Notes: generated by a model from the letters alone, not told the origin. A stretch of DNA of 64,000 bases from Deltaproteobacteria bacterium (GCA_032128375.1 JAQBGU010000107.1:7879-71878); one strand, 5' to 3'; shown: positions 6,608-60,265, counted from the first letter of the stretch. Numbers and translations: made by a program.

Positions 6608-6683
6608 GTCAGCTTCTGTCAGCTTCTGTCAGCTTCGGTCAGCTTCGGTCAGCTTCAGCCAGCTTCGGTCAGCTTCAGCCAGC
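6608..6683. repeat. 10-bp tandem direct repeat, about 7.6 copies (gtcagcttcN)
   Basis: Read directly: gtcagcttct x2, gtcagcttcg x2, gtcagcttca, gccagcttcg, gtcagcttca, gccagc. Located between the tetR stop (6705) and the ABC ATPase start (6506). Confidence 0.95.
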
Positions 6684-6704
6684 ATTCAGTAGATCCTGAT
6701 GGGC

Positions 6705-7337
6705 TCAAGTACAGATCCCATTGAGGTAAACCTCGACGACCGTCCGGGCGACGCGATCGAAGTAGTCGCCCTCTTTCTCGCCGGCCTCAATTTCGATCAC
6801 TCCCAGCACGAGCCCGGTAATAACGATCTCGAGCCCCCCGATCAACACATAGCACGCAATTTTGGGATCGAGATCTACTCGAACCTCGCCTCCCGCCTGG
6901 CCATCCCGCAAGATTGCCGCGATCATCGCGAACAATTTGCCCACCGCGTGCATCTGACCGGGTTCTGCGAAGCGCGACGAGCGTTGAATCTCGAGCACTA
7001 CGACCTTGACCCACTCGGGTCGTACCCGATAGGCGTTCACGATCAATTTCGCGATGGAGAGCAGCTTGTCTCGGGATGACTCATTCGAAGCTGCTATCGC
7101 GCTCACCACATCCAGGAAGCCACCCCAGCGCTCTTCGAAGATGCTGTTGAGGACTTCTTCTTTGTTTTTGAAGTAGTGGTAGACGAGGCCGTACGCGATC
7201 CCGGCTTCCTCGGCGATATCCGACACCCGCGCTGCGTGGTAACCCGTCCGAGCAAATACCCGGATCGCGGCGTCCAATATGGCAGTTCGTTTGTCTCGGC
7301 GAGCAGTTGATTCGGGGGCGGCAGGCAATTTGACCAC
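6705..7337 (-). CDS. TetR/AcrR family transcriptional regulator
   Basis: N-terminal HTH region (FARTGYHAARVSDIAEEAGIAYGLVYHYFKNKEE) characteristic of the TetR family. Confidence 0.9.
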   Translation of the reverse strand: MVKLPAAPESTARRDKRTAILDAAIRVFARTGYHAARVSDIAEEAGIAYGLVYHYFKNKEEVLNSIFEERWGGFLDVVSAIAASNESSRDKLLSIAKLIVNAYRVRPEWVKVVVLEIQRSSRFAEPGQMHAVGKLFAMIAAILRDGQAGGEVRVDLDPKIACYVLIGGLEIVITGLVLGVIEIEAGEKEGDYFDRVARTVVEVYLNGICT

Positions 7338-7458
7338 TGCAGTGCGTGTCTAAGGGGAGCCGCTGACTATATGAACTCAACCTGCGCCGTCAATACTTCA
7401 TGAATCCCAAACAGGAGCTGGAGTAGCCAACTCGACCAGACGGACTATCCTACTGGAA

Positions 7459-7761
7459 ATGCATAGGTTTCTGTTCGTTGAAGTCGTCCTGGTCGCCGTC
7501 GTGACGGGACTGGTGGCAGGGCCCGCCGCGGCGAGCGTGCCGCCGCCCGGATCATCACTCCCGTCAGCGCTCCGACTGCCCGTCGCTAACCCTCCCGGTC
7601 TCACGACTGGCCAGCCTGCTGGCGATTGGCGGGGTCGCTATTGCACGACCCCGTCGTGCACCGGCGGGTCGTCCCAACCGGGGTCGGCTGCACTCGGCTT
7701 TGGATCGGCCGTGCTCGCTGCGGGCTGGATCGCGAGGCGGCGCCGTCCGCTGGAAAGCTGA
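7459..7761 (+). CDS. Small secreted protein with Cys-motif/TM/Arg-cluster C-terminus (MYXO-CTERM/PEP-CTERM-like sorting signal)
   Basis: Signal-peptide-like N-terminus (FVEVVLVAVVTGLVAGPAAAS). C-terminus reads SCTGGSSQPGSAALGFGSAVLAAGWIARRRRP. The ORF ends 9 nt before the GT4 start codon. Confidence 0.4.
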   Translation: MHRFLFVEVVLVAVVTGLVAGPAAASVPPPGSSLPSALRLPVANPPGLTTGQPAGDWRGRYCTTPSCTGGSSQPGSAALGFGSAVLAAGWIARRRRPLES

Positions 7762-7772
7762 ACGGGCGGATC

Positions 7773-10573: not shown

Positions 10574-10879
10574 TCAGCGAGAGATCAGTACCCAGCGAAA
10601 GTAGCTCGACGAATTCGAGATCCGGCCCCCCTCACCCAGGCTATACGTCAGTTCGGGCGTCGCATGTGCGCCGTTGACGATCTCTTGGAACGCTTTCAGT
10701 TTCGCTTCGGGGTCGTCGGCGTTGTTGCCGTGGAAGACGATCTCGACTCGGGTTTTGCTCTCGATCACATTGAGGACCAGTGTCGCAAGCGTGAACAACT
10801 TCCCGATACCCTCAACGGCCTCGACCGAGAAGCGCGGGACATCTACTTGCGATAGCTCGAAGCCGTATTCGATTCGCAT
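10574..10879 (-). CDS. Hypothetical small protein
   Basis: 101-aa ORF with protein-like composition. GGAGAGAG Shine-Dalgarno-like sequence just upstream of the ATG. No family recognised. Confidence 0.5.
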   Translation of the reverse strand: MRIEYGFELSQVDVPRFSVEAVEGIGKLFTLATLVLNVIESKTRVEIVFHGNNADDPEAKLKAFQEIVNGAHATPELTYSLGEGGRISNSSSYFRWVLISR

Positions 10880-11042
10880 GGCTCTCTCCGTGTCTCCAGC
10901 GTGTCAGCGTGTCATGTGTTGAGTGGTTAGGTGTGCCGTGTTCCATGAAGCGCGCGCAGAGTGCCCTTGCCGCTTCGGGATGTCAATCGCCCGTCGCGTG
11001 TATGACCGGCGCGGCTACACAACTATGGCCGCAGCAGAACCC

Positions 11043-13148: not shown

Positions 13149-13153
13149 GTCGA

Positions 13154-14755: not shown

Positions 14756-15024
14756 GAGGAGCCTCCGGAATGAACAGACAGTCCTGGTTGGTGACGCGCG
14801 CGAATCTCGAGAACCTCGTCGACGGCGGGTTCGCCTCTGTGGTTTTCGCCAGCATAACGGAGGATCCCAGACCCCAGCCAGGATCCGCCCTGAATCCAGC
14901 CAGCGCGGTGTTCGGCCAGAAGAACAGGTCGCGTGATTCGACTCCTGTTCCGGTGCGCCATCTGCTACTCAGTGCCCCGGGGGAAGATCCACTGACAGCC
15001 CATCCGGCAGTCCACGAATGACGC

Positions 15025-16029
15025 ATGACCACTGAGCCGCCGCGCGCCGAAGCGCTGCTCGAAGTCATCGACCTCGTCACGTCCTTTCGGACCGAGGCGG
15101 GGACGATTCGCGCAGTCGACCAGGTGAGCTTCTCAGTCGAGACCGGTCGCACCGTGGCATTGGTGGGCGAGTCGGGCTGCGGCAAGAGTGTCACGGCGCT
15201 GTCGCTCATGCGTCTGATCCCCACCACCAACGGTCGCATCGACAGTGGCGCTGTCCGCTTCAACGGCACGGATCTCTTGGGCTTGTCCGAGCGCGAAATG
15301 CGTGACATCCGCGGCAACGAGATCTCGATGATCTTCCAGGAATCGATGACGGCACTGAACCCGGTTTTCACCGTGGGGCAGCAGATCATGGAGATCTTCA
15401 AAACCCATCGCGGTTACGGTCGCTCGCGAGCGCGAGCGGCCGCCATCGCGATGCTCACCGAAGTCAAGATTCCGAACCCCGGGCAACGTGTCGACGAATA
15501 TCCGTTCCAGTTATCCGGCGGAATGCTCCAGCGTGTGATGATCGCAATGGCTCTCGCATGTGAGCCGAGCCTGCTGATCGCCGATGAACCCACCACAGCG
15601 CTAGACGTGACGATTCAGGCGCAGATTCTCACTTTGATGCAGAACCTGCAGCAGGAACACCACACCGCGATCATTCTGATCACGCACGACCTCGGTGTAG
15701 TCGCGGAGTTCGCAGACAGTGTCGTCATCATGTACGCCGGTAGGGTCGCGGAGCGCGGGGACGTATTCACGATCTTCGAGGATCCAAAGCATCCCTATAC
15801 CCAAGGGCTGATGCGGGCGATCCCAGGACTCGAGGACAACCGGACTGGCGGGCTGTCCACCATCGAAGGCAACGTGCCCTCGCTCCAGAACCTGCCCCAG
15901 GGCTGCCGCTTCCATCCGCGCTGCCCTCATGCCCAGGAGCTGTGTCGCAGCGAAGTTCCGCAGCTCGAGCAGGTCTCCGACACACACGATGTCGCGTGTC
16001 ATCTCGTCGCTGGGAGGCTCGCTTCGTGA
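15025..16029 (+). CDS. Oligopeptide/dipeptide ABC transporter ATP-binding protein (OppD/DppD-like)
   Basis: Walker A GESGCGKS, signature LSGGMLQR, Walker [13 protein letters not shown], and the C-terminal Opp-type CxFxxRC segment. Confidence 0.9.
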
Positions 16030-23213: not shown

Positions 23214-25034
23214 CTACTCGAGCTCGCGTCTCAGGCCTTCGAGCTTTTTCATCAGATCCGGCTGCTCGCCTTCGCGCGGGACGAGTTCCACGGCCTGCTC
23301 GTAGTTCTCGAGTGCCTGCTCCTTTTCGTCGAGCAACAGGTACGCATCCCCGAGATGCTCGGACACGACTGGGTCACCACCCGTCAGTTCCTCGGCACGA
23401 TGCAGTGTCTTCAAGGAGCGCTCGATATACTGCTTGGCCTCTTCTTCTCTTCCGGTCTCGATCAGCGGCAGCGCGCGCATGTAGTAGACCCAGCCGAGGC
23501 TATCGGTAATGAATCCATCGTCGGGCCGAAGCCCGAGTGCTTGCGTGATGTAGTCCTCGGCCCGGTCGAGTTCCTGGCCGCCTTCGGCCCACGTATAGCC
23601 GACATAGTTCAGCGCACTGGCATTCTTCGGGTTGCGCTCGATTGCGCGCTGCATGTAGACAAGCGCCTCTTTGGTTCGTTTCGCTTCGCCGTAGACGACG
23701 CCCAGGTTATACAGGAGTTCGTCATCGTCGGGACTCTTCAGCAACAGCCCTTCGAGATATGCAACCGCACCGTCGAAGTCACCGGCCTTCGCGCGCAGTG
23801 TCGCGGAATACAATTCACGGGGCCGAGTCGGATTGACTGCAAGCGCGGTCTGCAGTTCTTCGAGCGCACGATCGAAATCTCGTGCTCGCTCGTAGAGAAC
23901 CGCGAGCTGTGTGCGCGCTTCGGCATAGTGGTCACTCTCGGCTGGGACCATCGAGAACGCGTCGACCGCTGCTTCATCATCGCCGAGACGGCGTCGCACG
24001 ATCCCGAGGAAGAACGTGACCTCTCCATTGCCCGGTCGTGAGGCCAGAAATCGTTCGAACTGCTCTGCGGCTTCCTCGAAGCGTTCCGCTTCGTAGTAGA
24101 CGAAGCCCAAACGCTCGATCGCTCGCCAGGCGTCGGGATAGTGCTGCTGGATCTCCTTCAACGTATCGATGGCACCTTCCATGTCGTTGTCGCCGATCTG
24201 AACGTCGGCGAGCGCCATCAAGGTCGCTTGGTGATGCGGATGGTTTTCCAAGATCTCTCGAAAGATGGCCTGCTGCCCCTCGACATCGCCTTGTTCGCGC
24301 GCCAACCGCGCCAGTTGGGAGAAGATCCGCACGTTGGTCGGCTCGATCGCCAGAGCCGTGCGAAGCGCCTTCTCTGCCTCCTTTGTGCTTCCCATCCTTT
24401 CATGGGCGTTGGCGAGCATGCCATAGGCGGCGGTGGAATCTTCATCGAGTTCGATCAGCCACTGGGCGATCTCGATCGCCTTCGACGAATCGTGTTCGAG
24501 GTGGATCTGGTAGAGCAACATTGCCGCTTGTTCGCTGCGCGGGTTCCCGTCAACGTCGAGCAGCACTGCTTCGGCTTCCGCGAACTGCCGCGCCAGCCGG
24601 TACAACTGGCCCAGAAACAGCCGCGTAAGATCGTCATCGGGCTCGAGCTCGAACGCGTGCTTTGCGTGCACGAGAGCCTGCGCCGGGTTTCCCTGGCGGA
24701 TCAGCGAGTTTGCGAGCCGGCGATGGATGAACGGCGAATCCGGGTCTTTTGCCAAAGCGCGCTGGAATGCGGCCGTCGCCTGTTCGAGTTCACCGTGGGA
24801 TTCGTGCTGCAAGCCGACCAGAACATCGTACTCGGGCGGTGCGTCCGGGCGCACTTCCACACCCAGCTCGCGCGACCCCGCCGTTTCGCTTTTCGGTGCC
24901 TCGAAACCCAGCGTCGCGCAGCCCGCGCTCGACATCGCACCCGCGACCACCGCGGCCATCTGTAGTTGACCAATCAGTTGGCGAATCAGGGGGCGAATCC
25001 CTGTACGAATCCCTGTTCGCATCCCTTGGCTCAT
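23214..25034 (-). CDS. TPR-repeat lipoprotein
   Basis: Many 34-aa TPR units along the whole protein. Lipobox MSSAGC. Start is ambiguous (25034 versus ATG 24959) because a 12-bp repeat array covers the 5' end. Confidence 0.85.
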   Translation of the reverse strand: MSQGMRTGIRTGIRPLIRQLIGQLQMAAVVAGAMSSAGCATLGFEAPKSETAGSRELGVEVRPDAPPEYDVLVGLQHESHGELEQATAAFQRALAKDPDSPFIHRRLANSLIRQGNPAQALVHAKHAFELEPDDDLTRLFLGQLYRLARQFAEAEAVLLDVDGNPRSEQAAMLLYQIHLEHDSSKAIEIAQWLIELDEDSTAAYGMLANAHERMGSTKEAEKALRTALAIEPTNVRIFSQLARLAREQGDVEGQQAIFREILENHPHHQATLMALADVQIGDNDMEGAIDTLKEIQQHYPDAWRAIERLGFVYYEAERFEEAAEQFERFLASRPGNGEVTFFLGIVRRRLGDDEAAVDAFSMVPAESDHYAEARTQLAVLYERARDFDRALEELQTALAVNPTRPRELYSATLRAKAGDFDGAVAYLEGLLLKSPDDDELLYNLGVVYGEAKRTKEALVYMQRAIERNPKNASALNYVGYTWAEGGQELDRAEDYITQALGLRPDDGFITDSLGWVYYMRALPLIETGREEEAKQYIERSLKTLHRAEELTGGDPVVSEHLGDAYLLLDEKEQALENYEQAVELVPREGEQPDLMKKLEGLRRELE

Positions 25035-25037
25035 ACC
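24966..25037. repeat. Degenerate 12-bp tandem repeat, about 6 copies
   Basis: ttgaccaatcag ttggcgaatcag ggggcgaatccc tgtacgaatccc tgttcgcatccc ttggctcatacc. If translated it gives the GMRTGIRTGIRPLIRQLIGQL periodic peptide. Confidence 0.85.
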
Positions 25038-25060: not shown

Positions 25061-25684
25061 TCATTCAGCCGCTGGCCCCGACAAATATCCCTTCCCGGCC
25101 AGGTAGTCGATCACCTGTCCGACGCTCTGCTCGATGCTCTGACCGCCCGTATCGACCACCAGTTCGGGTTTGTTGGGTGCTTCGTATGGCGCCGAGATCC
25201 CCGTGAACTCGGGGATCTCTCCCGCCCGCGCCTTCTTGTATAGGCCCTTTACGTCGCGCCCCTCACAGGTCTCGAGGCTCGCGTCGACAAATACTTCAAC
25301 AAAATCGCCATGTGGCATTAGCTCGCGGACCGCGTCGCGATCGGCACGATACGGCGAAATAAATGACGTGAACACGATCACTCCCGCCTCGGTAAACAGC
25401 TTCGAAACCTCACCGATACGCCGGATATTCTCGGTGCGATCCTCTGGTGAAAAACCCAGATTGCTATTGAGTCCGTGTCTGACGTTGTCGCCGTCCAAGA
25501 CGTAAGCGAGGTGACGGCGATGGGTCAGCTCCGCTTCGGCAGCGACGGCCAGCGTCGATTTTCCAGAGCCTGATAGGCCGGTCAACCAGACGGTGACACC
25601 GCGTTGGCCAACCACGCGCTCCCGGTCCTTTCGTTCGATCTGACCGGAATGCCAGGTAATGTTGTCGCTCTTAGGTTCAGCCAA
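25061..25684 (-). CDS. cysC: Adenylyl-sulfate (APS) kinase
   Basis: P-loop GLSGSGKSTLA. Typical CysC length and FISPYRADR motif. Confidence 0.9.
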   Translation of the reverse strand: MAEPKSDNITWHSGQIERKDRERVVGQRGVTVWLTGLSGSGKSTLAVAAEAELTHRRHLAYVLDGDNVRHGLNSNLGFSPEDRTENIRRIGEVSKLFTEAGVIVFTSFISPYRADRDAVRELMPHGDFVEVFVDASLETCEGRDVKGLYKKARAGEIPEFTGISAPYEAPNKPELVVDTGGQSIEQSVGQVIDYLAGKGYLSGPAAE

Positions 25685-25763
25685 CGCAAAACTCCTTCGG
25701 TCTCGTGCTCTCGAGGGTCCGTCTCGAAACGGGTGCCAATATCCAGAACGTTGTAGTTCGTGT

Positions 25764-25834
25764 GATCAGTTCGTGATCAGATCGTCGATCCGTTCATCGA
25801 TGGGCTCATCGATCGGTTCACCCCATCGATGTCG
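25764..25834. repeat. Degenerate 12-bp tandem repeat (gatNNNNtcatc), about 6 copies
   Basis: gatcagttcgt gatcagatcgtc gatccgttcatc gatgggctcatc gatcggttcacc ccatcgatgtcg. Located between the desulfurase stop (25837) and the cysC start (25684). Confidence 0.8.
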
Positions 25835-25836
25835 GC

Positions 25837-27039
25837 TCAATTCCGAACCGCACCGGGACCTGGGAAGGTAGCGGGGACGCGCGACTCGGGCTCGCCTCGA
25901 AGCCGACGAATCACCTCGATCAGCCGATCGGCGACCCAGCCAACCTGGTCGGCGTCGTTGCCTCTGCCCAGACCGAAGCGCAGCGTGCTGCGCGCCATTT
26001 CGTCGCTCAGGCCGAGCGCACGAAGCACATGGCTGGGTTCGGGACTCCCCGAGGAGCAGGCCGAGCCCGCCGAGAGCGCCACCTGTGGTAGAGCGGCAAT
26101 CAGCTGATCGGCCGAGATCCCAGGAAATGAAACGCTGAGATTTCCAGGCAGTCTGCGCTCGAGATGCCCATTGGTGATGGGATTGCCGAGTGCATCTGAC
26201 AACCGCACCCACAGCATCTGGCGTAGCTCGCGGAGGCGGCGGGCTTCGGCATCGCGCTCAGCAAGACAGATTTCGACGGCCTTCGCAAAGCCCACGATTA
26301 GCGCGACCGGCAGCGTCCCGGAGCGGCGTCCGGCCTCCTGGCCGCCTCCAAATACCAGTGGACGGATCCGGACTTTCGGTCGGCGCTTGGCGACATACAG
26401 CAAACCGATTCCCTTGGGCCCATAGAGTTTGTGGGCGCACATCGACAACAGATCCAGATTGCAGTGCTGCACGTCGATTGGAACCTTTCCGACTGCCTGG
26501 GCCGCATCAGTGTGGAACAGCACAGCGCGTTCGCGACAGATCCGACCGATTTCCGCCAGAGGCTGGAGGGTGCCCACTTCGCTGTTGGCGGCCATTACCG
26601 ATACCCAAAGCGTCCGGTCCGTGATGGCGCGCTCGACGGCAGCGGGGTCAACCAGACCGGTGCGGTCGACCGGAAGAACCGTCAAATCGAAGCCCTCGGA
26701 TTCTAGAGCGCGGCTGGTCTCGAGTACGGCGGGGTGCTCGATGGCTGTGGTGATGAGGTGATTTTTTTCGGGTGCGGCCCGGGCAGTCCCGAGCAGCGCG
26801 AGGTTGTCGCTCTCGGTTGTGCCACTGGTGAACACAAGTTCACTCGGGTCCCGCGCACCAATCGCGGCCGCGAGATTTTCCCTCGCCAGGGCAACCGCAG
26901 CCTCGGCACGCCAGCCGAACAAGTGACTGCTGCTCGACGCGTTGCCGAAATCGTCTGAGGCGTACGGAGACATCGCCTCGACGACGCGCGGATCGACCGG
27001 AGTGGTCGCGTGGTGGTCGAGATAGATCGGCGCGCTCAC
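25837..27039 (-). CDS. Cysteine desulfurase, IscS/NifS family (PLP-dependent)
   Basis: Class V aminotransferase fold. Has SMCAHKLYGPKG (PLP lysine region) and the active-site loop SAGSACSSG. Confidence 0.9.
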   Translation of the reverse strand: MSAPIYLDHHATTPVDPRVVEAMSPYASDDFGNASSSSHLFGWRAEAAVALARENLAAAIGARDPSELVFTSGTTESDNLALLGTARAAPEKNHLITTAIEHPAVLETSRALESEGFDLTVLPVDRTGLVDPAAVERAITDRTLWVSVMAANSEVGTLQPLAEIGRICRERAVLFHTDAAQAVGKVPIDVQHCNLDLLSMCAHKLYGPKGIGLLYVAKRRPKVRIRPLVFGGGQEAGRRSGTLPVALIVGFAKAVEICLAERDAEARRLRELRQMLWVRLSDALGNPITNGHLERRLPGNLSVSFPGISADQLIAALPQVALSAGSACSSGSPEPSHVLRALGLSDEMARSTLRFGLGRGNDADQVGWVADRLIEVIRRLRGEPESRVPATFPGPGAVRN

Positions 27040-27135
27040 GAACCTGGCGGGCTGCGGCCGTGGGTGCGTTGGAGGCGGTGCGACCCGCGGTAGCGCTCGC
27101 GGTGCGGCCCCCGACTCCTCTGGATTCGCTGCTCT

Positions 27136-27468
27136 CTAGGCAGCGAAGGATTCTCCACAACCACAGGTAGCGCTTGCATTTGGGTTGCCCATCTTGAACC
27201 CGGTCTCGTTTAGCGTATCCACGAAATCGAGCTTGGTCCCCATCAGGTACAGCGCACTCTTCTCATCAATAATGACCCGAATCCCATGCGCTTGAATCTC
27301 GGAATCAATCTCTTTGAACTGGTCATCGAACGCGAGCTCGTAGCGAAGCCCCGAGCAACCTCCACCCACCACCTTCATCCGCAGGGCATGGGTGTCGAGC
27401 TTCCCGTCTTTTTCGAGCAGTTCGTGGATCCGCCGACCGGCGGCTTCTGTGACTTCAATGATCGACAT
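27136..27468 (-). CDS. Iron-sulfur cluster insertion protein (IscA/ErpA, HesB family)
   Basis: C-terminal CGCGESF motif plus an upstream conserved Cys (GGGCSG). ATG 27468 is preceded by GGGAAGAG. The ORF-track TTG 27501 is probably an extension. Confidence 0.85.
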   Translation of the reverse strand: MSIIEVTEAAGRRIHELLEKDGKLDTHALRMKVVGGGCSGLRYELAFDDQFKEIDSEIQAHGIRVIIDEKSALYLMGTKLDFVDTLNETGFKMGNPNASATCGCGESFAA

Positions 27469-27504
27469 ATACTCTTCCCGCCAGTTCGCCTTTCGGTTCA
27501 AGCC

Positions 27505-27559
27505 GTTGTTCGACTGCTGTTCGACTGTTGTTCGACTGCTGTTCGACTGCTGTTCGACA
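27505..27559. repeat. 11-bp tandem direct repeat, 5 copies (g[ct]tgttcgact)
   Basis: gttgttcgact gctgttcgact gttgttcgact gctgttcgact gctgttcgaca. Located 37-91 nt upstream of the iscA-like ATG on its sense strand. Confidence 0.95.
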
Positions 27560-27612
27560 CAGGGAGAATAGGCACGAGTGCCTCTAAGTCAAATCGACGG
27601 GTGCTCTGCCGC

Positions 27613-28389
27613 TCATTCGCTTCGATCTGGCATACCCGCCGCCTCCTCTTCGGCCGGCCGAGGCAGGAACCTCACGAAGATCTCGCGGTTGCCTTTCGGC
27701 CCAGCCAAACGGCTGTCCGCGCTTGCGACCGGGTCCCAGCCGAGTTCGGTCCCGCAGACGGCGACACGGTCTGCGGCGGCCCCTCGCAACACGGGATCGC
27801 GAACGACGCCGCCCTTGCCGACTTGCCCCTTGCCGACCTCGAATTGCGGCTTGACCATCACGAGCAGCTCGCAGCTCGGCAGTTCCCGAGCCAGCATCGG
27901 CAACAGCAAAAGCACTGAAATAAACGAAACATCGACGACCACCAGACTCGGTATTGCGTCCAGATCTGATGCCTTGAGGTAGCGAGCGTTGGTTCGCTCC
28001 ATCACGCTCACGCGCGGGTCTTCACGAAGGCGCAAATCGAGCTGGCCCCAACCCACATCTACCGCGACAACGCGGCTGGCTCCCGCTTGGAGCAGGCAAT
28101 CAGTAAAGCCTCCCGTCGAGGCGCCGAGATCGAGGCAAATTCGTCCCCGCGGATCGACACCCAGGTCCTCGAGCGCACCCGAGAGCTTCTCGCCACCGCG
28201 CGACACATAGCGGCGATCTTCTCCGCGGAGCCGGAGCTTTGCTTGATCCGCAACGCGTGTGCCCGGCTTGTCGATCGGCACGTCGTCGACCAGCACGCGA
28301 CCGGCTCGAATCAGCGCCTGTGCGCGGGTGCGTGACTCTGCCAGCGCGTCGGCGACCACCCGCTCGTCCAGGCGCTGGCGCGCACTCAC
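27613..28389 (-). CDS. tlyA: TlyA family rRNA (cytidine-2'-O)-methyltransferase
   Basis: N-terminal S4-like domain and a FtsJ-type SAM motif (LDLGASTGGFTD). GTGA overlap with the dxs stop. Confidence 0.85.
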   Translation of the reverse strand: MSARQRLDERVVADALAESRTRAQALIRAGRVLVDDVPIDKPGTRVADQAKLRLRGEDRRYVSRGGEKLSGALEDLGVDPRGRICLDLGASTGGFTDCLLQAGASRVVAVDVGWGQLDLRLREDPRVSVMERTNARYLKASDLDAIPSLVVVDVSFISVLLLLPMLARELPSCELLVMVKPQFEVGKGQVGKGGVVRDPVLRGAAADRVAVCGTELGWDPVASADSRLAGPKGNREIFVRFLPRPAEEEAAGMPDRSE

Positions 28390-31470: not shown

Positions 31471-31494
31471 ACCTTCGACCTGCGTGCCTTTTTT

Positions 31495-31590
31495 GACTGA
31501 ATGTCTGACTGAATGTCTGACTGAATCTCTTGATGATGTCTCGCTGAATGCCTTGCTGAATGTGTTGCACGAACTCTCGCTGAAAACTTG
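31495..31590. repeat. 12-bp tandem repeat, about 8 copies decaying from perfect (gactgaatgtct)
   Basis: gactgaatgtct x2 perfect, gactgaatctct, then degenerate gctgaatg-type units. Lies in the 369-bp xseA-xseB gap, in frame with the long xseB ORF. Confidence 0.9.
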
Positions 31591-38106: not shown

Positions 38107-38311
38107 CGCCGGTGTCGGCCCCCTGCGAACCGCTTGAACGCGCGAGTCTGGTACGCCAGCTGGCCGTTGTCGACTCGGCCTGGCAAGACTTCGCGCAATC
38201 GGGCGAGTCCATTTGGAGAATCGGCGAATTGGCAGACGAGCTGAAGCCCGACATCGTCGCATTCAGGCCCCAGGGCCCATGCAGGGGGGGGTGGAATCGG
38301 CCTCGCCGGAA

Positions 38312-39103: not shown

Positions 39104-39126
39104 GCGGGCCGATCGAGCCTGGGTTT

Positions 39127-39198
39127 GGATCGCAAATTGAATCGCAAATTGAATCGCAGATTGGATCACTTTTTGAATCACTGTATCGGTCACTGTAA
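39127..39198. repeat. 12-bp tandem repeat, about 6 copies (gaatcgcaaatt)
   Basis: ggatcgcaaatt gaatcgcaaatt gaatcgcagatt ggatcacttttt gaatcactgtat cggtcactgtaa. Spans the gap between the upstream stop (39190) and the LTD gene ATG (39103). Confidence 0.9.
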
Positions 39199-41097
39199 AA
39201 TACTCTCCGATGCGTTCGGGACCGGGCTAGGTGCATCACCCGAATCTCGGGCCATGCTGTGACGCCTGGGATCTCGCGGAGCGGGATCGCGTTGTGTCGA
39301 ACCCGCAAGCGGGTCGGACTCGGGGAGTCGGCGGGAGAACCAACCACCAGTCCACGCATCGATTCCCGCAGCGAGTTGGTCCGCGCGAATCTGCAGCGGT
39401 AGCCCGTCGCCGTCCCCGCTTATGGAATGGATTTCGGCGAGCACACGCTGTCTCTCGAAGTACAGCTGCGTCACCTCATCGAGCACTTCGTCTCGCAACT
39501 CGATGATCTCGCGCGCCTCTCGCGAAATGTCGAGCCGCTCCGGGTGGTACGCGATGTCGCCGAGGTCCCAGACCAGGCTGAGTCGGAGTTCCAATCCTGT
39601 CGCGCGATCGCGATCTGAATCTCTCAGCTCACGGAGTCCCCCCGACAGGTAAGCCTCGTCGTAGTCCCAGCTCCGCGATTTGTCTCTGTCACGGGAGATC
39701 GAGAAGGCAACGGCCGGAAGCCAGCCTCGACGATCCAGTCCCCGGTTGATCTCGCGAACCCGGCCTGGATCGAGTTCGAGGTAATCGAGTGCGGCTCGGT
39801 GAACCCGATCGATACCCGGATCCGCCGAATCGTGTTGCGGCAGACTCGGCGGAACAGCGACTCCCAAACCCGCGGTACCCACCATCAGACCACGATCGGT
39901 CGCGACATAGAGGGCGTGTTCGATTTCGCTGTCGGCGCTCTCGCGACCGATCGCCGCCAAATCCCCGATTGGACGGGTCGCAAACGGGCCGTTCGCAGGC
40001 AGCCACGGTCCGCGCAGGTTCCGCGAGCGGAACAGTCCCCGGTCCGACGCGAGCCAGCACCAGCCTATTGCCTGAGCGAGTTCGACGATCGACGCGCCCG
40101 GAGCCAATTCCGGGCGCAGCACATCCCAACCGAGCCCTGATTCCATGGAATCGTCGGCTCGGCTCACGACGATTGCAGAGTCGTAGACGACGACAATCTC
40201 AGAGCCGTCGATGTCGAGCGCGATGTCGACCGCTTCGCCACGTCCCGGCCCCAATGGCAGCTCGATTGGACTCGCACTTGTCTGATGGAAGAGAGTCTGA
40301 TGGAAGAGAGTCTGATGGATACTGGTTTGCTGAGATAGCGCCTGCGTGGATCGGGACGGAGTCTGAGGCGTCGCAGACACTGCGGCTTGTAGAAACACCC
40401 GCCACAGCTGACCGCGAATGACGGCCCAACACTCGATTCCGTCGCTGCGCTCCTTCAGCGCGACACTGGAGGCTGGACCGGTGGGTACCCCCCCGCCGAG
40501 TCGCTGCCATACCTGCGCATCAAGCGACAGGAACACCCCGTCGGCGGTCGCAATCGCGGTTACCCGGCCCGCCGTCGCGATACGCGACACATCCGCAGCG
40601 CCCGCACCCGGCGCCGGAGCGACCGGGCGACCAGCGGATGCGAAATCCGCCCGATACAGCCCTGATTCGGTAGCGATCAACAAGTCGGGTGAATGCGTCC
40701 CGATCGCTGCGACGAATCGGACTTCCCGCACGGCACCTCGAAGCCAGTGCCTGCGCAGCGCGTCGGGTCCGCTCCCAACCAATACGCCGCGCGAGTCCCC
40801 TACCGCGAACGCGAATCGCGCCCCCGGTGCGATGGCGACCGCGTGGATCGCATCGCGAGCGGCCGCGAGAGCAACCGTTTCCCACCGGACTTCCAAGGGA
40901 AGTTGAGCCGAACGCTCGTCGGAACGCTCGTTGAAGCTCTCGTCGGAGCTCTGGTTGGAGCTGGCAGTTCCGGGGGCGAGTGTCGAAGCGAGTGAAGCCA
41001 GAACAGCGAGGATTGCGGTCGCGAGGATCTGGATCGTTCCGACCTTGCTCGTGGGTCGTTTCGAGGAGCGCACCACAAGGGAAAGAGCAAGATGCAT
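39190..41097 (-). CDS. Large secreted hypothetical protein
   Basis: 635 aa with an N-terminal signal/anchor (ILATAILAVLASLASTLA). Contains two internal in-frame nucleotide repeat arrays. No recognisable catalytic motif. Confidence 0.7.
   Translation of the reverse strand: MHLALSLVVRSSKRPTSKVGTIQILATAILAVLASLASTLAPGTASSNQSSDESFNERSDERSAQLPLEVRWETVALAAARDAIHAVAIAPGARFAFAVGDSRGVLVGSGPDALRRHWLRGAVREVRFVAAIGTHSPDLLIATESGLYRADFASAGRPVAPAPGAGAADVSRIATAGRVTAIATADGVFLSLDAQVWQRLGGGVPTGPASSVALKERSDGIECWAVIRGQLWRVFLQAAVSATPQTPSRSTQALSQQTSIHQTLFHQTLFHQTSASPIELPLGPGRGEAVDIALDIDGSEIVVVYDSAIVVSRADDSMESGLGWDVLRPELAPGASIVELAQAIGWCWLASDRGLFRSRNLRGPWLPANGPFATRPIGDLAAIGRESADSEIEHALYVATDRGLMVGTAGLGVAVPPSLPQHDSADPGIDRVHRAALDYLELDPGRVREINRGLDRRGWLPAVAFSISRDRDKSRSWDYDEAYLSGGLRELRDSDRDRATGLELRLSLVWDLGDIAYHPERLDISREAREIIELRDEVLDEVTQLYFERQRVLAEIHSISGDGDGLPLQIRADQLAAGIDAWTGGWFSRRLPESDPLAGSTQRDPAPRDPRRHSMARDSGDAPSPVPNASESILQ
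40281..40320. repeat. 15-bp in-frame tandem repeat, about 2.7 copies (tctgatggaagagag)
   Basis: Two perfect copies plus a partial third. Encodes the (H)QTLF pentapeptide repeat on the minus strand. Confidence 0.9.
40909..40968. repeat. Degenerate 12-bp in-frame tandem repeat, 5 copies
   Basis: cgaacgctcgtc ggaacgctcgtt gaagctctcgtc ggagctctggtt ggagctggcagt. Encodes SSNQSSDESFNERSDERS just after the signal peptide. Confidence 0.8.
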
Positions 41098-41868: not shown

Positions 41869-42843
41869 GTGTCCGGAATTTCAGCCTCTCCGATCGTCGC
41901 GCTTTGCGGCGGCGTGGGGGCCGCGCGCTTTCTGGCCGGCCTCGTCGCTGCCGTCGACCCTCAGCAGGTAACGGCTATCGTCAATACGGGCGACGATCGC
42001 ATGTTCTACGGCGTCCACGTCTCGCCCGACCTCGATATCGTCACATACACGCTATCGGGACAAGTCGACTCCACCCGCGGCTACGGTCTGGCCGGCGATC
42101 GATACTCCGTCGTCGACGCGTTGGGCGCGTTCGGGCACGAAAGTTGGTTCAGACTCGGCGACCGCGACTTCGCCACGAGCTACCACCGGACACTTCGGCT
42201 CGCCGCTGGCGTGGGCTTGACCGCGGTCACCCATGAGATTCAGACGCATTTCGGCGTGCCCATTCGAATTCTACCCATGTCTGAAGATCCGTGCCCCACC
42301 ATCGTCGAACTCGAAGGTGGCAGGAGATTACACTTCGAGGAATACCTCGCGCGCGACGGCGCGCCCGACGAGGTTTGTGGGGTCGATCTGTCTGCCGCCG
42401 AGCGAGCGGTGCCGGGCCCCGGTGTACTGGAGGCGATCTCGAGTGCCGGAACGATACTATTGTGCCCGAGTAATCCGGTCGTTTCGATCGGCCCGATCCT
42501 GGCGGTCCCTGGTATCCGCGATGCGGTGGTCGATTCTCCGGCGCCGGTCGTCGCGGTATCGCCGATTGTCGGTGGCGCGCCAGTGAAGGGGCCGGCCGAT
42601 CGACTGCTGCGGGGTTTGGGCAAAGAGGTCTCGGCACGTGGAGTCGCTGTGTGGTACCAGGGTCTGATCGACGGCTTCGTGATCGACCAACGCGATGCCG
42701 ATCTGGCCAAAGACATCGAAGCGATGGGCATGCCGACGCGCGTACTCGACACGCTCATGAAGACCACGAAAATTGCGGCATCGGTGGCGCGGGCCGCGCT
42801 CTCGCTGGCTGAGGCCCTGTCGGCCTCGGAGCCGCGCGAATGA
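41869..42843 (+). CDS. cofD: 2-phospho-L-lactate transferase (F420 biosynthesis)
   Basis: N-terminal LCGGVGAARFL motif and CofD/FbiA-like length and sequence throughout. Confidence 0.85.
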   Translation: MSGISASPIVALCGGVGAARFLAGLVAAVDPQQVTAIVNTGDDRMFYGVHVSPDLDIVTYTLSGQVDSTRGYGLAGDRYSVVDALGAFGHESWFRLGDRDFATSYHRTLRLAAGVGLTAVTHEIQTHFGVPIRILPMSEDPCPTIVELEGGRRLHFEEYLARDGAPDEVCGVDLSAAERAVPGPGVLEAISSAGTILLCPSNPVVSIGPILAVPGIRDAVVDSPAPVVAVSPIVGGAPVKGPADRLLRGLGKEVSARGVAVWYQGLIDGFVIDQRDADLAKDIEAMGMPTRVLDTLMKTTKIAASVARAALSLAEALSASEPRE

Positions 42844-43481
42844 TCGCGGCGATCGTACCGGTGAAAGCACTGGGGTCGTCAAAGTCGCGGTTGTTTTCGG
42901 CCTTGGATCGAAAGTCGGTCGAACGGCTGTCGATCGCGATGCTCGGCGATGTGGTCGATGCTCTGCTTTGCGTCGCGGCATTGGACCGCGTCGCGGTGGT
43001 CACGCCTGACCCCGAAGTCGCAGCCATCGTGCGACCGACGGCCGCCGAAGTGCTGTTACGCGACGTTCCGGGGCTGAACGCTTCGATTGACGATGCGTCG
43101 GCCACACTCGCTCCCGGACCCGATGACGCGACACTGGTGGTGCTCGGCGACGTCGCGGGCGCGCGTTCCGACGATCTCTCGAAGCTGATCGACGCCTGCG
43201 CGCCGCGCGGAGTGGTGCTGGCTCCCTCGTCGGATGGGGGGACTTCTGCGCTGTTTCGGCGCCCCGCCAACGTGATCAAGTCCGGGTTTGGCGCAGACAG
43301 CGCAGCGGTGCACCGCAAGCTGGCCTGCGTCGCCGGCATACCCTTTTGTGAAGTCGCACTCGCGTCTCTCGCGATCGACATCGACGATCGCGAGGATCTC
43401 GTGAACTTCGCCAGACACGGGTGCGGCGGGCCGCGGACACGTGCGCTGCTCGCTGAACTCTTACCGGAGTTGATATCATGA
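42840..43481 (+). CDS. cofC: 2-phospho-L-lactate (or related) guanylyltransferase
   Basis: N-terminal IVPVKALGSSKSRL motif typical of CofC/FbiD. ATGA overlap with cofD. Confidence 0.8.
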   Translation: MIAAIVPVKALGSSKSRLFSALDRKSVERLSIAMLGDVVDALLCVAALDRVAVVTPDPEVAAIVRPTAAEVLLRDVPGLNASIDDASATLAPGPDDATLVVLGDVAGARSDDLSKLIDACAPRGVVLAPSSDGGTSALFRRPANVIKSGFGADSAAVHRKLACVAGIPFCEVALASLAIDIDDREDLVNFARHGCGGPRTRALLAELLPELIS

Positions 43482-44236
43482 GCGTCGTACCCGGAGCGAT
43501 CCACTTGATTCCGCTGCTCGGAATCCCTGCCGTACAGCCCGGCGATGACCTCGCAGCGATGATTCGGACCGCCGCAGATGCGTGTGACATCCAGTTGAAA
43601 GATGGCGCATTGGTGGTCTGCCAGAAAATCGTGTCCAAGGCCGAGGGAAGGGTTGTCGCACTCGCCGACGTAGAACCCACTGAGGAGGCACTGAAGATCG
43701 CAGCCGAGGACGACCGCGATGCCAGACAGACCGAACTGGTGCTGCGCGAAACGAAGCGAATCGTCCGGCGCGGTCATGGGGTGCTGATCTCGGAAACCCG
43801 ACATGGGTTCGTCTGTGCGAATGCGGGACTGGATCTTTCCAACGCGGTCGCGCCAGACTCGGCCGTATTGCTGCCACTCGATCCCGATGCATCGGCGCGC
43901 AAGCTGCGCGACGCACTGATGAAAAATGGCGCCGGGCCGCTGGCTGTCATCGTGAGCGACACGTTCGGTCGGCCGTGGCGCGATGGACTGGTGGACGTCG
44001 CACTCGGAAGCGCCGGTATCGCGCCGATCATGGACTTGCGCGGCCAGACCGACCTGATCGGCCGCGAACTCGAAGTGACCGCCACGGCGACGTGCGACCA
44101 ATTTGCCGCCGCCGCCGGGATCTTGATGCAAAAGGCCGCCGGCATCCCAGCCGTCTGGATCGAGGGCCACCCGATCGAAGGCGACGGAACCATTCGGGAG
44201 ACGCTGCGCGACCCGAGCACAGATTTGTTTCGATAG
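43478..44236 (+). CDS. cofE: Coenzyme F420-0:L-glutamate ligase (stand-alone type)
   Basis: 252 aa CofE-like protein (VVCQKIVSKAEGR...GFVCANAGLD...SDTFGRPWR). No fused nitroreductase domain. ATGA overlap with cofC. Confidence 0.85.
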   Translation: MSVVPGAIHLIPLLGIPAVQPGDDLAAMIRTAADACDIQLKDGALVVCQKIVSKAEGRVVALADVEPTEEALKIAAEDDRDARQTELVLRETKRIVRRGHGVLISETRHGFVCANAGLDLSNAVAPDSAVLLPLDPDASARKLRDALMKNGAGPLAVIVSDTFGRPWRDGLVDVALGSAGIAPIMDLRGQTDLIGRELEVTATATCDQFAAAAGILMQKAAGIPAVWIEGHPIEGDGTIRETLRDPSTDLFR

Positions 44237-55979: not shown

Positions 55980-55983
55980 CGGC

Positions 55984-57278: not shown

Positions 57279-57291
57279 GGGGAGGCGGAGG

Positions 57292-59907
57292 CTATCGGGC
57301 AGCGAGCGCCGCCGCCAGACGCCCGCGCAAGGGCATCACATCTTCGAACAGCGGCCCGGGCTGGTAGAGCGGCTCTTTGCCGGTGGAGTCTGGGGCCTGC
57401 TCCAGAATGCCCCTGCGTTCCATCAAGTCGAGCGACCCGCGAAACGCGGTCTCGTTTGCCGACTCTCTCCGCGCGACTTCTCCGAGTAGCTCGGAGCGCA
57501 CGTAATGTTCGTCGGCCGCCTTCATCAGGTTCTTGCGCGACATCGCTCCAACCATCGCCAGCACGGCGTTCGAGGTCGCGTAGTAGACCTCGACGATTCC
57601 GCGCGTTTGTTCCGCCAGGAATCGAAAATACGAAACGCCCTTTTCGGTAGGCTCGAGGCGCTCGCCGGAACGCTCGATCCAGCAGAATCGCTCGAAGTGG
57701 TCGATGAAGGCGTCTACGTGAGACGCGAGAACTTCACCTTTGGGAGTGAAAAACTCGAAATAGAACAGGTCGAGCCAGACCGGCAATTCGGCGCGAACGC
57801 TGTCGATTTCTGGGCTCGACAGCAGGTGTCGCGCCAGGAAGCTCGGCGTCGCCAGGTAGTGGACGATCGTGTTCCGGTACATGTCGAGCGCCCGCACGCG
57901 ACCGGGCTCGTAGTAAAGGACTTCTCCCCTCGCGTCGGGGTCGGAACGGATCAGGTCTGCGCTCAACATCGAGCCGATCGATACGTGGAATCCGCCCTCG
58001 TCGCGATCCAGTGCGGGCGTGAGTCGGACATCTTGCAGTCGCAGCAAGTCGACGATCTGCTGCATTCGCGCCGCCAACTCTTCGCGAAACATCCCGCGAC
58101 TCGATTCCCCCATCAGCGCACACGCGGCGACCGATGTCGCGTTGGGAATCACAGACCAGTTGATTCGTTCGACGAGGCGGTTGCCCAGCCCTTCGACAAA
58201 CGCTCGTTTCTCCTGCAGGGCCTCGGGCGTGTCATCGAGGAACCGTTCGCGTTGGTCCCCCAAGGCGTCCGCCAGGGAAATCGGCTCACCAAAATTGACG
58301 AATACGCTCCCGAAGGCAAGACGCAGGAATTTCCGCGCTCGGACGAGTCCCCACACGCTCTCGGCCTGTTTCTGTTCGCCTTCGAGTTCCCCCATCATCG
58401 CGCTCTCTTCGACGAGCCGTTCGTACGAGATCGCGATGGGTACGAAGAACATGTCGCGCCGCGCACTCGCGAGAAATGCCTCGACATTCCAGGCGAGCAT
58501 CCCCAGTCGGGGCGCGAGCGACTTGCCGGTTCGCGAACGACCCCCCTCGATGAAGAATTCCTGCGGGAAGCCCTGCTTGATCAGGTGAGCCACATAGGCT
58601 TGAAACACGGCTTTGTAGAGAGGATCGTCGAACGACTTCCGCAAGAAGAACGCGCCGGCGCGACGCCAAATGAACCCGAACGGGCCGAACGCCATGTTGT
58701 CCCTGGCCGCGATATGCGGCGGAACAAGGTGATTGCCGTAGAAGATGATCGACAGGATCAGAAAATCGAAGTACGAGCGATGGCTCGGTGCGAGCACGAG
58801 TGGGTGGCGCTTGGCGTAGTCGGCGATTTTCTCGATTCCCGTCAGCTCGATCGAAGTGAACAACCGCTTCAGGATGGCACCAACCAGAAAATTGAGAGCG
58901 GCCAGAAACGTCGAGTTCATATTCGCGGCGATTTCGCGGAACATCTTCGCGGCCTCGGCTTGGCCACGCTCTACCGACGCGTTGCGTCCGCTCGCCCAAT
59001 CGCGAATCGCGTGTTCGACTACCGGGCTCCCGATCACGCTCTGTTGCACACGGTGACGGGGCCGCAGCGTCGGTCCCTCGACCACTTTCTCCTCGCGGTA
59101 CAGGAAGGTCAGGATCGATCGACGCACTTTGCGTGCGACGCGATACCGACCCTCTTTTCGCTGCGCGTGAACGAACCGTCCGAGGTCGATCGAACCTCCC
59201 ACCTTCACACACAGGCCGCGATAGGTGGTCAGAAACGAGATCACCTTCGCCAGGTCTGACGGTCGCGTCGTAGCGCCGTACGTGAGATTCAGAAATCCTT
59301 GATGTGAGCGCGGCCCCTTTGTCCAGAACAGCGCAAGCGGAACCAGGTAGACCGGACGATCGGAATCCCGGACGTTCGCGACGATCTCCTCGAGCAGGTC
59401 GAGTTCACCCTTACCGTGCTCGACGGCGCTCTTGCGGGAGCGCAGCTGGGTTCGAATCCGGGCCGTGCGCAAGAACAGAAACGACGAGGTGCCGCGGCGA
59501 ACGTTCGAACCGAGGTTCGCGCGTGTCTCAGCCAGGTCGAACTCCCGAAACAATTCCCCCCGCCGCGACCAGGCCAGTCGCAATAGTTGCAACAGCGGCC
59601 GGTAGTAGAAAAACCGGATGCCGTTGGCGAACCGGGACAACCTCAACCCTTCGCGGACGAACAGCGTGTTGAATAGGAAATAGTCGAGACGGCTCGCATA
59701 GCGCATCACGTAAACGACCGATCCGCGACTCTCGAGTTCGCGAAGGTGATCGACGGTTTCTTTGTCGAGGTCGAAGTGACGGAAAAATCGCTGCGCAAAC
59801 CACTGGAACGGCCAATTGAACTGAGGCGTCATCGCAGACAACGCATCGGAGGCGTCGTCCACCAGATCGATCCGATCGACCGAATTCTCCCCGGGGTGCT
59901 CAGCCAT
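57292..59907 (-). CDS. plsB: Glycerol-3-phosphate 1-O-acyltransferase
   Basis: 871 aa. HxxxxD acyltransferase motif (PSHRSYFDFLIL) and FIEGGRSRTGK block, as in PlsB. Confidence 0.9.
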   Translation of the reverse strand: MAEHPGENSVDRIDLVDDASDALSAMTPQFNWPFQWFAQRFFRHFDLDKETVDHLRELESRGSVVYVMRYASRLDYFLFNTLFVREGLRLSRFANGIRFFYYRPLLQLLRLAWSRRGELFREFDLAETRANLGSNVRRGTSSFLFLRTARIRTQLRSRKSAVEHGKGELDLLEEIVANVRDSDRPVYLVPLALFWTKGPRSHQGFLNLTYGATTRPSDLAKVISFLTTYRGLCVKVGGSIDLGRFVHAQRKEGRYRVARKVRRSILTFLYREEKVVEGPTLRPRHRVQQSVIGSPVVEHAIRDWASGRNASVERGQAEAAKMFREIAANMNSTFLAALNFLVGAILKRLFTSIELTGIEKIADYAKRHPLVLAPSHRSYFDFLILSIIFYGNHLVPPHIAARDNMAFGPFGFIWRRAGAFFLRKSFDDPLYKAVFQAYVAHLIKQGFPQEFFIEGGRSRTGKSLAPRLGMLAWNVEAFLASARRDMFFVPIAISYERLVEESAMMGELEGEQKQAESVWGLVRARKFLRLAFGSVFVNFGEPISLADALGDQRERFLDDTPEALQEKRAFVEGLGNRLVERINWSVIPNATSVAACALMGESSRGMFREELAARMQQIVDLLRLQDVRLTPALDRDEGGFHVSIGSMLSADLIRSDPDARGEVLYYEPGRVRALDMYRNTIVHYLATPSFLARHLLSSPEIDSVRAELPVWLDLFYFEFFTPKGEVLASHVDAFIDHFERFCWIERSGERLEPTEKGVSYFRFLAEQTRGIVEVYYATSNAVLAMVGAMSRKNLMKAADEHYVRSELLGEVARRESANETAFRGSLDLMERRGILEQAPDSTGKEPLYQPGPLFEDVMPLRGRLAAALAAR

Positions 59908-60223
59908 CGTCCACAGGTACCACCGCTGAACCGGTGGGGCAACGAATACGTGCGGAGATTCGCCACCCCACGCAGCTGCCTCCGGAGTCTCCCTGGCTTG
60001 AAGAGAAATTCGTCCAATGCCCGAACCTCGCGAGCTGACCAGCCGCCATCAGCTGATGACCTCACCGGCGAATCGTTGGCGTACGCGAAGTCACCGCAGG
60101 TAGATTGCTGCACGCTTGGACCGCGCCCGTGAGCGCGCCTCCAAGCCGACACGCTGGGGAACGCGCTAGTGTCCCGACACAGGTTCGCCGCGCGCAAGAA
60201 CCTGCCGAATTCCTGAGTTGGAT

Positions 60224-60265
60224 CATCCACTCACGAGCATCCACTCACGAGCATCCACTCACGAG
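60224..60265 (+). repeat. Perfect 14-bp tandem repeat, 3 copies (catccactcacgag)
   Basis: Three identical copies end 8 nt before ATG 60274. The last copy contributes the GAGG Shine-Dalgarno-like element. Confidence 0.95.

Follow-up and report, generated by a model that had tools for sequence, protein, structure and literature searches.

The closest described counterparts of the repeats reported here are bacterial variable number tandem repeats (VNTRs), the loci of multiple-locus VNTR analysis (MLVA). Earlier surveys located long-unit repeats mainly in large, high-GC genomes of non-pathogens, where they clustered ahead of start codons (summarised in PMC4692102). Comparable arrays are known from Borgs, the linear extrachromosomal elements of Methanoperedens, in which perfect repeats cover 0.62% of the sequence against at most 0.01% in their archaeal hosts (PMC9879509), from the contingency loci of Neisseria, Haemophilus and Campylobacter, and from the heptameric repeats of Xanthomonas and Nostoc (PMC4692102). 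The subject of this study is a stretch of 64,000 nucleotides (nt) of Deltaproteobacteria bacterium (GCA_032128375.1, JAQBGU010000107.1:7879-71878; hereafter the window), in which eleven arrays of short direct repeats, A1 to A11, were noticed by a sequence-only reading. These arrays originated within this lineage and change by whole units. With a probability of about 0.7 they are ordinary bacterial VNTRs (minisatellite-type, 7-18-nt units) that arose by replication slippage and small tandem duplication. They would thus represent an ordinary kind of element which is unusually dense here, and nothing shows a special function.

All eleven arrays were recovered by Tandem Repeats Finder (TRF), with coordinates that were exact or off by a few bases; the copy numbers first given for the decayed arrays proved somewhat overstated. 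In order along the window they are as follows.

6604-6690, minus strand: A1, 10-nt unit GCTGNNNGAA, 8.6 copies by TRF (8 units).
10889-10925, minus strand: A11, weak CGTGTC-type array with units of 8-11 nt (TRF 10897-10914, 8 nt, 2.2 copies, score 36).
24964-25037, minus strand: A2, coding 12-nt array (TRF 24964-25026, about 5 units) at codons 4-23 of a tetratricopeptide repeat (TPR) lipoprotein gene (23214-25034).
25762-25820/34, minus strand: A3, 11-12-nt array (TRF) between the stop codon of a cysteine desulfurase-like gene (25837) and cysC (APS kinase, TTG start at 25684).
27505-27559, minus strand: A4, 11-nt unit AGTCGAACAGC, 5 copies (TRF 27507-27558, 4.7 copies, 95% matches).
31494-31590, minus strand: A5, 12-nt unit AGACATTCAGTC, about 7 units (TRF 31494-31584, 5.9 copies, plus decayed units).
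39124-39198, minus strand: A6, 12-nt array of the TTTGCGATTCAA type (TRF 39124-39179, 3.6 copies, plus decayed units).
40280-40319, minus strand: A7, coding 15-nt array, 2.7 copies with 100% matches by TRF; HQTLF repeats at residues ~260-273 of a 635-amino-acid (aa) protein.
40909-40968, minus strand: A8, coding 12-nt array (TRF 40910-40962, 4 copies); a polar linker rich in Ser, Asp and Glu.
55248-55293, plus strand: A9, C/A-rich array of 14-15-nt units, 2.6-3 copies (TRF 55248-55285, 2.6 copies).
60224-60265, plus strand: A10, perfect 14-nt unit CATCCACTCACGAG, 3 copies with 100% matches by TRF.

Eight of the arrays are non-coding (A1, A3, A4, A5, A6, A9, A10 and A11) and three lie in frame within genes (A2, A7 and A8). 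Most of them are decayed, with 77-95% matches, the longest perfect runs in the window being 42 and 33 nt; the most uniform units are usually found at the gene-proximal end of the array, with exceptions. As had been proposed, no unit is shared between arrays: the longest common substring of any pair was 8 nt, the length found for random segments, and no copies of the units were found elsewhere in the window. The units abut head-to-tail without spacers, and a clustered regularly interspaced short palindromic repeat (CRISPR) array was ruled out since unique spacers do not occur between the units.

Likeness to bacterial VNTRs extends from structure to behaviour. The head-to-tail units span 7-18 nt when all repeats are counted, thus longer than about 6 nt, and their number is above chance; the arrays are mostly intergenic, several are upstream of start codons, and the frame is kept within genes. 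Between related genomes whole units are gained or lost, neighbouring units are homogenised, and the rates are of the slippage type. The heptameric repeats of Xanthomonas and Nostoc (PMC4692102) are likewise intergenic between co-oriented genes, variable in length between close species and without a tie to pathogenicity genes; unlike the arrays of the window, each of which is G-poor and has a unit of its own, they consist of one genome-wide, G-rich unit capable of forming G-quadruplexes.

The window is part of a bacterial chromosome of 62% GC, and its gene order over ~25 kb is shared with some twenty metagenome-assembled genomes (MAGs) of Myxococcota. For comparison, a near-identical set was available at 99.92-99.95% nt identity (Logan contigs L001-3 and the MAG GCA_032128195.1, L176), followed by a sister genome at 96.2-96.3% nt identity (GCA_032125315.1; pieces L170, L172 and L173). 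More distant relatives were L084, L086 and L090, at 89-91% aa identity, and L085 and L171 (both GCA_029261905.1), at 81-90% aa identity. A6 to A8 were compared only with the 99.9% identical genome, and A9 with no relative.

The excess of arrays was evident both over chance and over real genomes. Ten arrays with a TRF score of at least 50 were present in the window, whereas 60 shuffles that preserved dinucleotides gave 0.62 on average and never more than 3. Strict criteria (period 7-20, at least 2.9 copies, at least 36 nt, expressed per kb of intergenic DNA) were applied to other genomes because, in relatives of more than 70% GC, two-copy coding repeats of 18-30 nt inflated the counts that TRF gave at loose settings (any period, score of at least 45-50). 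The resulting densities were 0.78 for the window, 0.11 for 21 syntenic loci of related Myxococcota and 0.08 for 59 outgroup loci. The window and sister together had 3.4 perfect repeats (30 nt or more, three units or more) per 100 kb, and 1.7 Mb of other bacterial loci had 0.53 per 100 kb. Further arrays were located beyond both ends of the window: a 13-nt array of 4.4 copies, seen in the sister, ~100 nt outside the start, and a 12-nt array of 3.8 copies ~3 kb outside the end.

Smaller repeats which contributed to the comparison with the sister are listed below.

6519-6536, minus strand: 8-nt micro-repeat GCCGAAGG in 2 units, directly adjoining the ribosome-binding site (GAAGGAG) of the gene for the ABC ATPase.
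15018-15030, plus strand: 7-nt duplication, ATGACGC followed by ATGACC, copying the start codon of the gene at 15025-16029.
31174-31203, minus strand: coding repeat in the C-terminal tail of XseB, 18-nt unit, LSADGV, ~1.7 units.
31707-31726, minus strand: 10-nt tandem duplication in the xseB leader.
38273-38291, strand not assigned: small 10-12-nt repeat beside a poly-G tract, located in the spacer that follows a gene for an LTD/PEP-CTERM protein.

Nine of nine homologous repeats (A1 to A5, A10, A11, the XseB tail repeat and the array past the window end) differ from the sister by whole units, which bears out the earlier suggestion of recent slippage. Over 35 kb, 11 of the 12 indel loci of at least 6 nt are tandem-unit events. 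Three very small events are among these eleven: the 8-nt unit at the ABC ATPase gene, present in three units in L170 (8-nt indel at 6535) and in one copy in L171; the 7-nt start-codon copy at 15018, missing in L170; and the 10-nt duplication of the xseB leader, of which L172 has one copy. The repeat at 38273 has an extra 10-nt unit in L172 (TRF 12 nt, 2.4 copies).

Among the arrays themselves, A1 has nine units in the sister (L170), six of them identical and with another mix of variants, and it is missing in L171 at 83% nt identity; the window carries GCTGGCTGAA twice, GCTGACCGAA three times and GCTGACAGAA three times, and the sister GCTGGCTGAA six times consecutively. A11, weak as it is, was accepted as a real repeat because the window has one 11-nt unit more than the sister. 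The spacer that holds A3 is 152 nt long in the window and shorter by 24 nt, or two units, in the sister (L172), compared with 53-114 nt without an array in L086, L084 and L085. A4 is reduced to 2.2 units in L172 and to single GAAC seeds in L084. A5 reaches 9.8 copies of 12 nt in L172, including four perfect units of another variant (TTCAGTGAGACA x4, where the window has TTCAGTCAGACA x3), and is represented in L084 by a single TTCAGC seed. A10 has five variant units in L173 and none in L090, at 89% aa identity. The XseB tail has one more in-frame 18-nt unit in L172 (LPADGV; TRF 18 nt, 2.7 copies), and the array past the window end has 3.8 units in the strain of the window and 2.8 in the sister. 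The dominant unit variants of each array differ between the window and the sister, an indication of repeated expansion and contraction.

The relatives at 81-91% aa identity show the state from which such arrays are probably derived: promoter, ribosome-binding site and start codon are conserved, the spacers are shorter and contain one seed copy. L085 is an exception, the leaders of its iscA-like gene and xseB containing small repeats unrelated to those of the window. The clearest series is that of A2, with one unit in L085, two in L084, about three in L086, four in the sister (L172) and five in the window. This array encodes GMRT-GIRT-GIRP-LIRQ-LIGQ, which lies in the charged N-terminal part of a signal peptide, ahead of a lipobox-like SAGC; the start codon (ATG 25034) and the AGGAG ribosome-binding site are kept in four relatives, and the TPR assignment is based on Pfam. 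As judged from the translated sequences, the predicted N-terminal stretch is lengthened from ~9 to ~25 residues; it is at the protein level only, here and in XseB (below), that a phenotypic consequence was demonstrated. The idea that the arrays generate N-terminal peptides is thus sustained for one array. From seed to two, three, four and five units, these genomes provide a natural series of slippage lengthening 5' leaders and a signal peptide, with promoter, ribosome-binding site and start codon left untouched.

In the near-identical set A2, A3, A5, A6, A7 and A8 were unchanged, and the only indels in 20.6 kb were two homopolymer differences. With 9/9 arrays changed at 3.8% divergence and 0/6 at 0.05-0.08%, turnover was calculated to lie between ~33 and 600 events per array per substitution per site. 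In Myxococcus xanthus, mutation-accumulation lines gave 1.23e-8 indels per repeat unit per generation compared with 5.5e-10 substitutions per site, the repeat-unit indels being insertion-biased (21:6) and including a 16-nt unit (PMC11069108). For an array of five units these rates correspond to a ratio of ~110, and ordinary slippage is sufficient because this value falls inside the bracket.

There is indirect evidence that A10 varies within populations, based on contig ends and not on reads. The k=31 contigs of three runs with the allele of the window all start at base 60236, within the array; k=31 contigs of two further runs and a contig of the sister MAG also end in or at A10, and one of these contigs carries an allele other than that of the MAG. 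Because the contigs branch here though the window has no repeated 31-mer, alleles of at least four units are expected among the reads. Logan contigs stop within A4 as well. In total, short-read contigs from several runs and MAGs stop in or beside A4, A5 and A10 (27516-27558; 60236; L173 position 1; L084 position 1), and assemblies from this lineage are repeatedly broken up by the arrays.

Intergenic DNA makes up ~10% of the window and holds 7 of the 11 arrays, or 8 with A6 (binomial P for at least 7 of 11, ~2e-5). Such concentration is the expected product of purifying selection against insertions in genes. The sequence-only reading had further described the arrays as parked near gene starts, and this was not borne out: ~47% of the intergenic bases are no more than 100 nt upstream of a start, as are five of the eight non-coding arrays wholly, two partly and one not at all, so that intergenic DNA alone gives the same result and there is no evidence for start-proximal placement beyond it. 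Nor do all arrays belong to leaders or gene starts, as A9 lies between convergent genes and begins 5 nt past a stop codon, a 3' position, and its RNA is predicted to be fully unstructured. A1, A3 and A11 are found in spacers between co-oriented genes, as most likely is A6. A1 occupies the 198-nt spacer between a TetR-family gene (6705-7337) and the leading gene of an ABC-2 transporter operon, which starts at 6506 (both by Pfam), and A11 sits 10 nt upstream of the ATG of a gene for 101 aa (10574-10879).

Scanning of 25600-31900 (6.3 kb) returned only two promoter-like matches.

27565-27592, minus strand: putative sigma-70-type promoter TTGACT-16-TATTCT upstream of the iscA-like gene; kept in L084, L085, L086 and L172.
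31784-31812, minus strand: putative sigma-70-type promoter TTGACG-17-TAGCAT after xseA; a scan match kept in L085.

Because A4 begins 5-6 nt past the -10 hexamer of the first of these predicted promoters, the leader of the iscA-like gene, whose ATG is at 27470, probably has this array at its 5' end. The second promoter is predicted to drive xseB-ispA-dxs via a leader of ~300 nt with A5 at its 3' end; A5 stops 24 nt before the xseB ATG (31470) and is most uniform at this gene-proximal end. Eight nucleotides separate the end of A10 from the ATG of a gene (60274-61359) for a diiron oxygenase-like protein, and the array is located between this start codon and a promoter-like element which is kept in distant relatives and was missed by the consensus scan. 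The -35 and -10 hexamers and the spacing from ribosome-binding site to start are uninterrupted by arrays.

Coding units are multiples of three without exception (12, 15 and 12 nt, and 18 nt in the XseB tail; 4/4), while the non-coding units of 8-15 nt are divisible by three in 3 of 8 cases, so the split noticed earlier was upheld. The indels of A2 and of the XseB tail against the sister are 12 and 18 nt, and the frame is kept. XseB carries extra peptide repeats, and so, probably, does the 635-aa membrane-anchored protein with A7, in which A8 forms the linker directly after the N-terminal membrane anchor. Together, the multiples of three and the intact spacing of promoters and ribosome-binding sites look like signs of a selective filter.

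These properties separate the arrays from contingency loci, with which they have in common that slippage changes tandem repeats near gene starts. The units here are long, the coding arrays preserve the frame, none is placed between -35 and -10, and change is estimated at 1e-8 to 1e-7 per generation compared with 1e-5 to 1e-2 at contingency loci; on/off logic is not possible. A phase-variable on/off switch was rejected because every coding unit is divisible by three and because A4 and A5 come after the -10 hexamer. Frame and promoter spacing stay intact and the genes concerned have housekeeping functions; on these grounds the arrays were not classed as contingency loci.

The explanation preferred here is slippage followed by a selective filter. 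A short seed in an ancestral spacer would be duplicated; the array would then gain and lose whole units, neighbouring blocks would be homogenised and other variants would win in each lineage. Selection would act only as a filter, letting arrays persist where added sequence is harmless, and tolerant sites would be 5' leaders past their promoters, operon spacers, 3' spacers, the charged N-terminal part of signal peptides, and protein linkers or tails. Within genes only units that are multiples of three would survive. The outcome would be longer leaders and spacers and a few added peptide repeats, and a regulatory role would not be needed. Under this explanation the arrays are notable mainly for their density and their clear evolutionary series.

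Several points weigh against it. The density is ~7-10 times that of the syntenic loci in relatives, and slippage alone leaves this excess unexplained. On the sense strand the non-coding arrays contain 34% A and 21% G, and the remaining co-directional intergenic DNA 20% A and 31% G. Of 10 arrays, including those beyond the window or in the sister, 8 have more A than T, with one tie and one reversal. This A-rich, G-poor composition hints at an orientation-dependent bias or at selection on the RNA. Several of the small duplications coincide exactly with a ribosome-binding site or a start codon. The density and the apparent sense-strand A-bias also set the window apart from described VNTRs, as does the fact that several arrays begin at a predicted transcription start or occupy translation-initiation signals. 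The slippage mechanism and near-neutrality are what we infer, and the material consisted of ~64 kb of the genome of the window and 52 kb of the sister.

Adaptive tuning is an unlikely alternative, in which copy number in leaders, ribosome-binding sites and signal peptides would adjust translation or export as a graded evolvability device. It would account for the arrays and micro-duplications that occupy the translation-initiation regions of many genes, for the unrelated repeats gained independently by the leaders of the iscA-like gene and xseB in L085, and for the A-richness and G-poverty of the sense strand, which would favour unstructured leaders. The predicted energy needed to open the ribosome-binding site was slightly lower with the array than without it in 6/6 leaders, though by 0.04-1.7 kcal/mol only. 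However, native, array-deleted and array-shuffled leaders showed no difference in predicted opening energy, and shuffled arrays gave the same predicted accessibility as native ones, contrary to the proposed tuning of translation. Sense-strand folding of the arrays gave no consistent structure (z-scores from -3.1 to +1.0), and no leader RNA families or tRNAs were found in the window by Rfam at gathering thresholds or by ARAGORN. The genes downstream are housekeeping genes (iscA/iscS-like, cysC, xseB-ispA-dxs, ABC transporter), close relatives have the same genes without arrays, one array is in a 3' spacer, and proximity to starts is not above the intergenic expectation. The absence of change at 99.9% identity means that any switching is slow.

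The excess and the A-bias would also be expected from a dedicated or biased repeat-forming process of the kind proposed for Borgs, in which a lineage-specific replication or repair factor makes A-biased repeats. We regard this as improbable in the present case, in spite of a partial likeness. As in Borgs (PMC9879509), each array has its own unit, origins are independent and rapid, the rule of three applies to coding repeats only, A appears to be favoured, and partial, seed-like copies flank the arrays; a lipoprotein and a membrane-anchored protein are affected, and assemblies are broken where contigs end at arrays. The excess, moreover, is lineage-specific. Under the Borg criterion (perfect, at least 50 nt, at least three units) two arrays of the sister pass, with 64 and 51 nt, covering 0.22% of 52 kb. 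None of the arrays in the window does, most being decayed; turnover matches the rate of ordinary slippage, the A-bias has one clear counter-example, a candidate enzyme was not seen in the window, and the sample is small. The setting differs too, as this is a bacterial chromosome of 62% GC and not an archaeal extrachromosomal element of ~33% GC; the arrays are short and mostly imperfect, approximately a quarter to a third of them are in open reading frames compared with about half in Borgs, and A5 to A8 are identical in a second genome at 99.9% identity. A Borg as the carrier was ruled out by the housekeeping operons syntenic with Myxococcota MAGs. Of the resemblance to Borg repeats that had been pointed out, several traits therefore stand, and the strict repeat criterion and the carrier fall.

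It is similarly doubtful that this species-level lineage of free-living Myxococcota_A, probably of genus JAJDAM01 from the Baltic Sea, has acquired a Borg-like tendency towards A-biased, transcription-oriented, array-specific repeats, by which 5' leaders, ribosome-binding regions and signal peptides would preferentially be lengthened. If this were true, Borg repeats would reflect a general, transferable mutational state and not a peculiarity of an archaeal element. If the arrays are instead ordinary VNTRs, the striking traits of Borg repeats (unique units, multiples of three, A-bias, broken assemblies) can arise by slippage and selection in an ordinary chromosome, and claims that such traits need a special mechanism are tempered.

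Regulators of the OmpR/PhoB type use direct repeats at helical-turn spacing, and units of 10-12 nt approximate one helical turn. A role of the arrays in cis, as phased protein-binding sites or curved DNA modulating promoters, is nevertheless very improbable, since the unit differs for each array, copy number changes freely and relatives keep the promoters without the arrays. Phased curvature at promoters, as first suggested, is unsupported because unit length ranges from 7 to 18 nt and the arrays are placed past the promoters, A4 and A5 being in the transcribed leaders of conserved ones. Direct repeats binding a regulator, or iterons, were rejected because the units are unique to each array and missing in relatives at 81-91% aa identity.

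Assembly artefacts, which might be suspected since near-perfect arrays often terminate contigs, are hardly credible: the arrays are present, without indels, in Logan assemblies made independently from three runs and in a second MAG from NCBI (99.9% identity), the sister has homologous arrays with diverged units, and the window contains no repeated 30- or 31-mer able to cause a false join. In practice, the arrays fragment short-read assemblies and mislead the calling of start codons, and they would be good strain-typing markers for this lineage.

The gene for the LTD/PEP-CTERM protein illustrates the miscalled starts. A6 lies between the stop codon of the gene for the 635-aa protein (39190) and the probable ATG (39103) of this gene, recorded at 38399-39193. 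Signal peptides of eight relatives have 25-35 residues, a length that fits a start at ATG 39103 and not the recorded GTG at 39193, and ATG 39103 was therefore taken as the true start. The recorded start appears to be 30 codons too early because the reading frame is open through A6, and A6 itself is most likely non-coding. A6, A7 and A8 are the same in L176. The poly-G tract adjoining the small repeat downstream of this gene (38273-38300) has G8 in the window and G9 in L176.

The source of the window was traced through sequencing runs. Sequence identical to it is present in the Baltic Sea runs ERR5010711, ERR5010721 and ERR5010722, and bins of the same runs were classified in GTDB as Myxococcota_A, SMWR01, genus JAJDAM01 (bioRxiv 10.1101/2025.06.02.657333). 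The genome of the window thus likely belongs to JAJDAM01, which is named after the MAG that supplied L085 and L171. The gene content is of the housekeeping type: the TetR gene is followed by the ABC-2 transporter operon, and there are oligopeptide transporter genes, xseA followed by xseB-ispA-dxs, genes for TlyA/FtsJ-like, iscA-like and cysteine desulfurase-like products, cysC, the TPR lipoprotein gene, and genes for coenzyme F420 biosynthesis and cytochrome c maturation. The F420 cluster of this Myxococcota_A genome is located at 41869-44236 (CofD, CofC, F420 ligase).

More distant Myxococcota MAGs with the same syntenic block were seen to have occasional long arrays of their own at other positions, namely L018 5608-5753 (14 nt, 10.4 copies) and 1808-1910 (19 nt, 5.3 copies), and L011 2770-2860 (18 nt, 5.1 copies).

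The leader of xseB-ispA-dxs (31471-31839) is unusually long at ~300 nt; leaders of relatives are in a similar length class and there was no Rfam match. It could hold an undescribed regulatory RNA. In the place of A5, L085 (GCA_029261905.1) has an unrelated 14-nt array of 2.8 copies (2025-2063), which copies the start-codon region of xseB (GTGAGCGCAGAAGA / GTGAGCGCAGACAA / ATGAGCGCAGACGA). This array yields two mini-ORFs (open reading frames) of five codons, the TGA stops of which overlap the next start (GTGA / ATGA). ExoVII, the product of xseAB, is among the exonucleases that stabilise tandem repeats in E. coli.

Two further differences between close genomes were recorded. About 1.8 kb of the sister (L170 14719-16519), situated in the stretch in which genes for an MBOAT-family protein and a protein of 389 aa are called, is missing from the window at ~1833 and represents a difference in gene content between two genomes that are 96% identical. 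At ~48562 (48553-48575) the window has T9 where GCA_032128195.1 has T8; T9 cuts ccmF (48165-50127) into two overlapping open reading frames, and L176 encodes an intact CcmF of 653 aa. The T9 allele is either a homopolymer frameshift or an assembly error.

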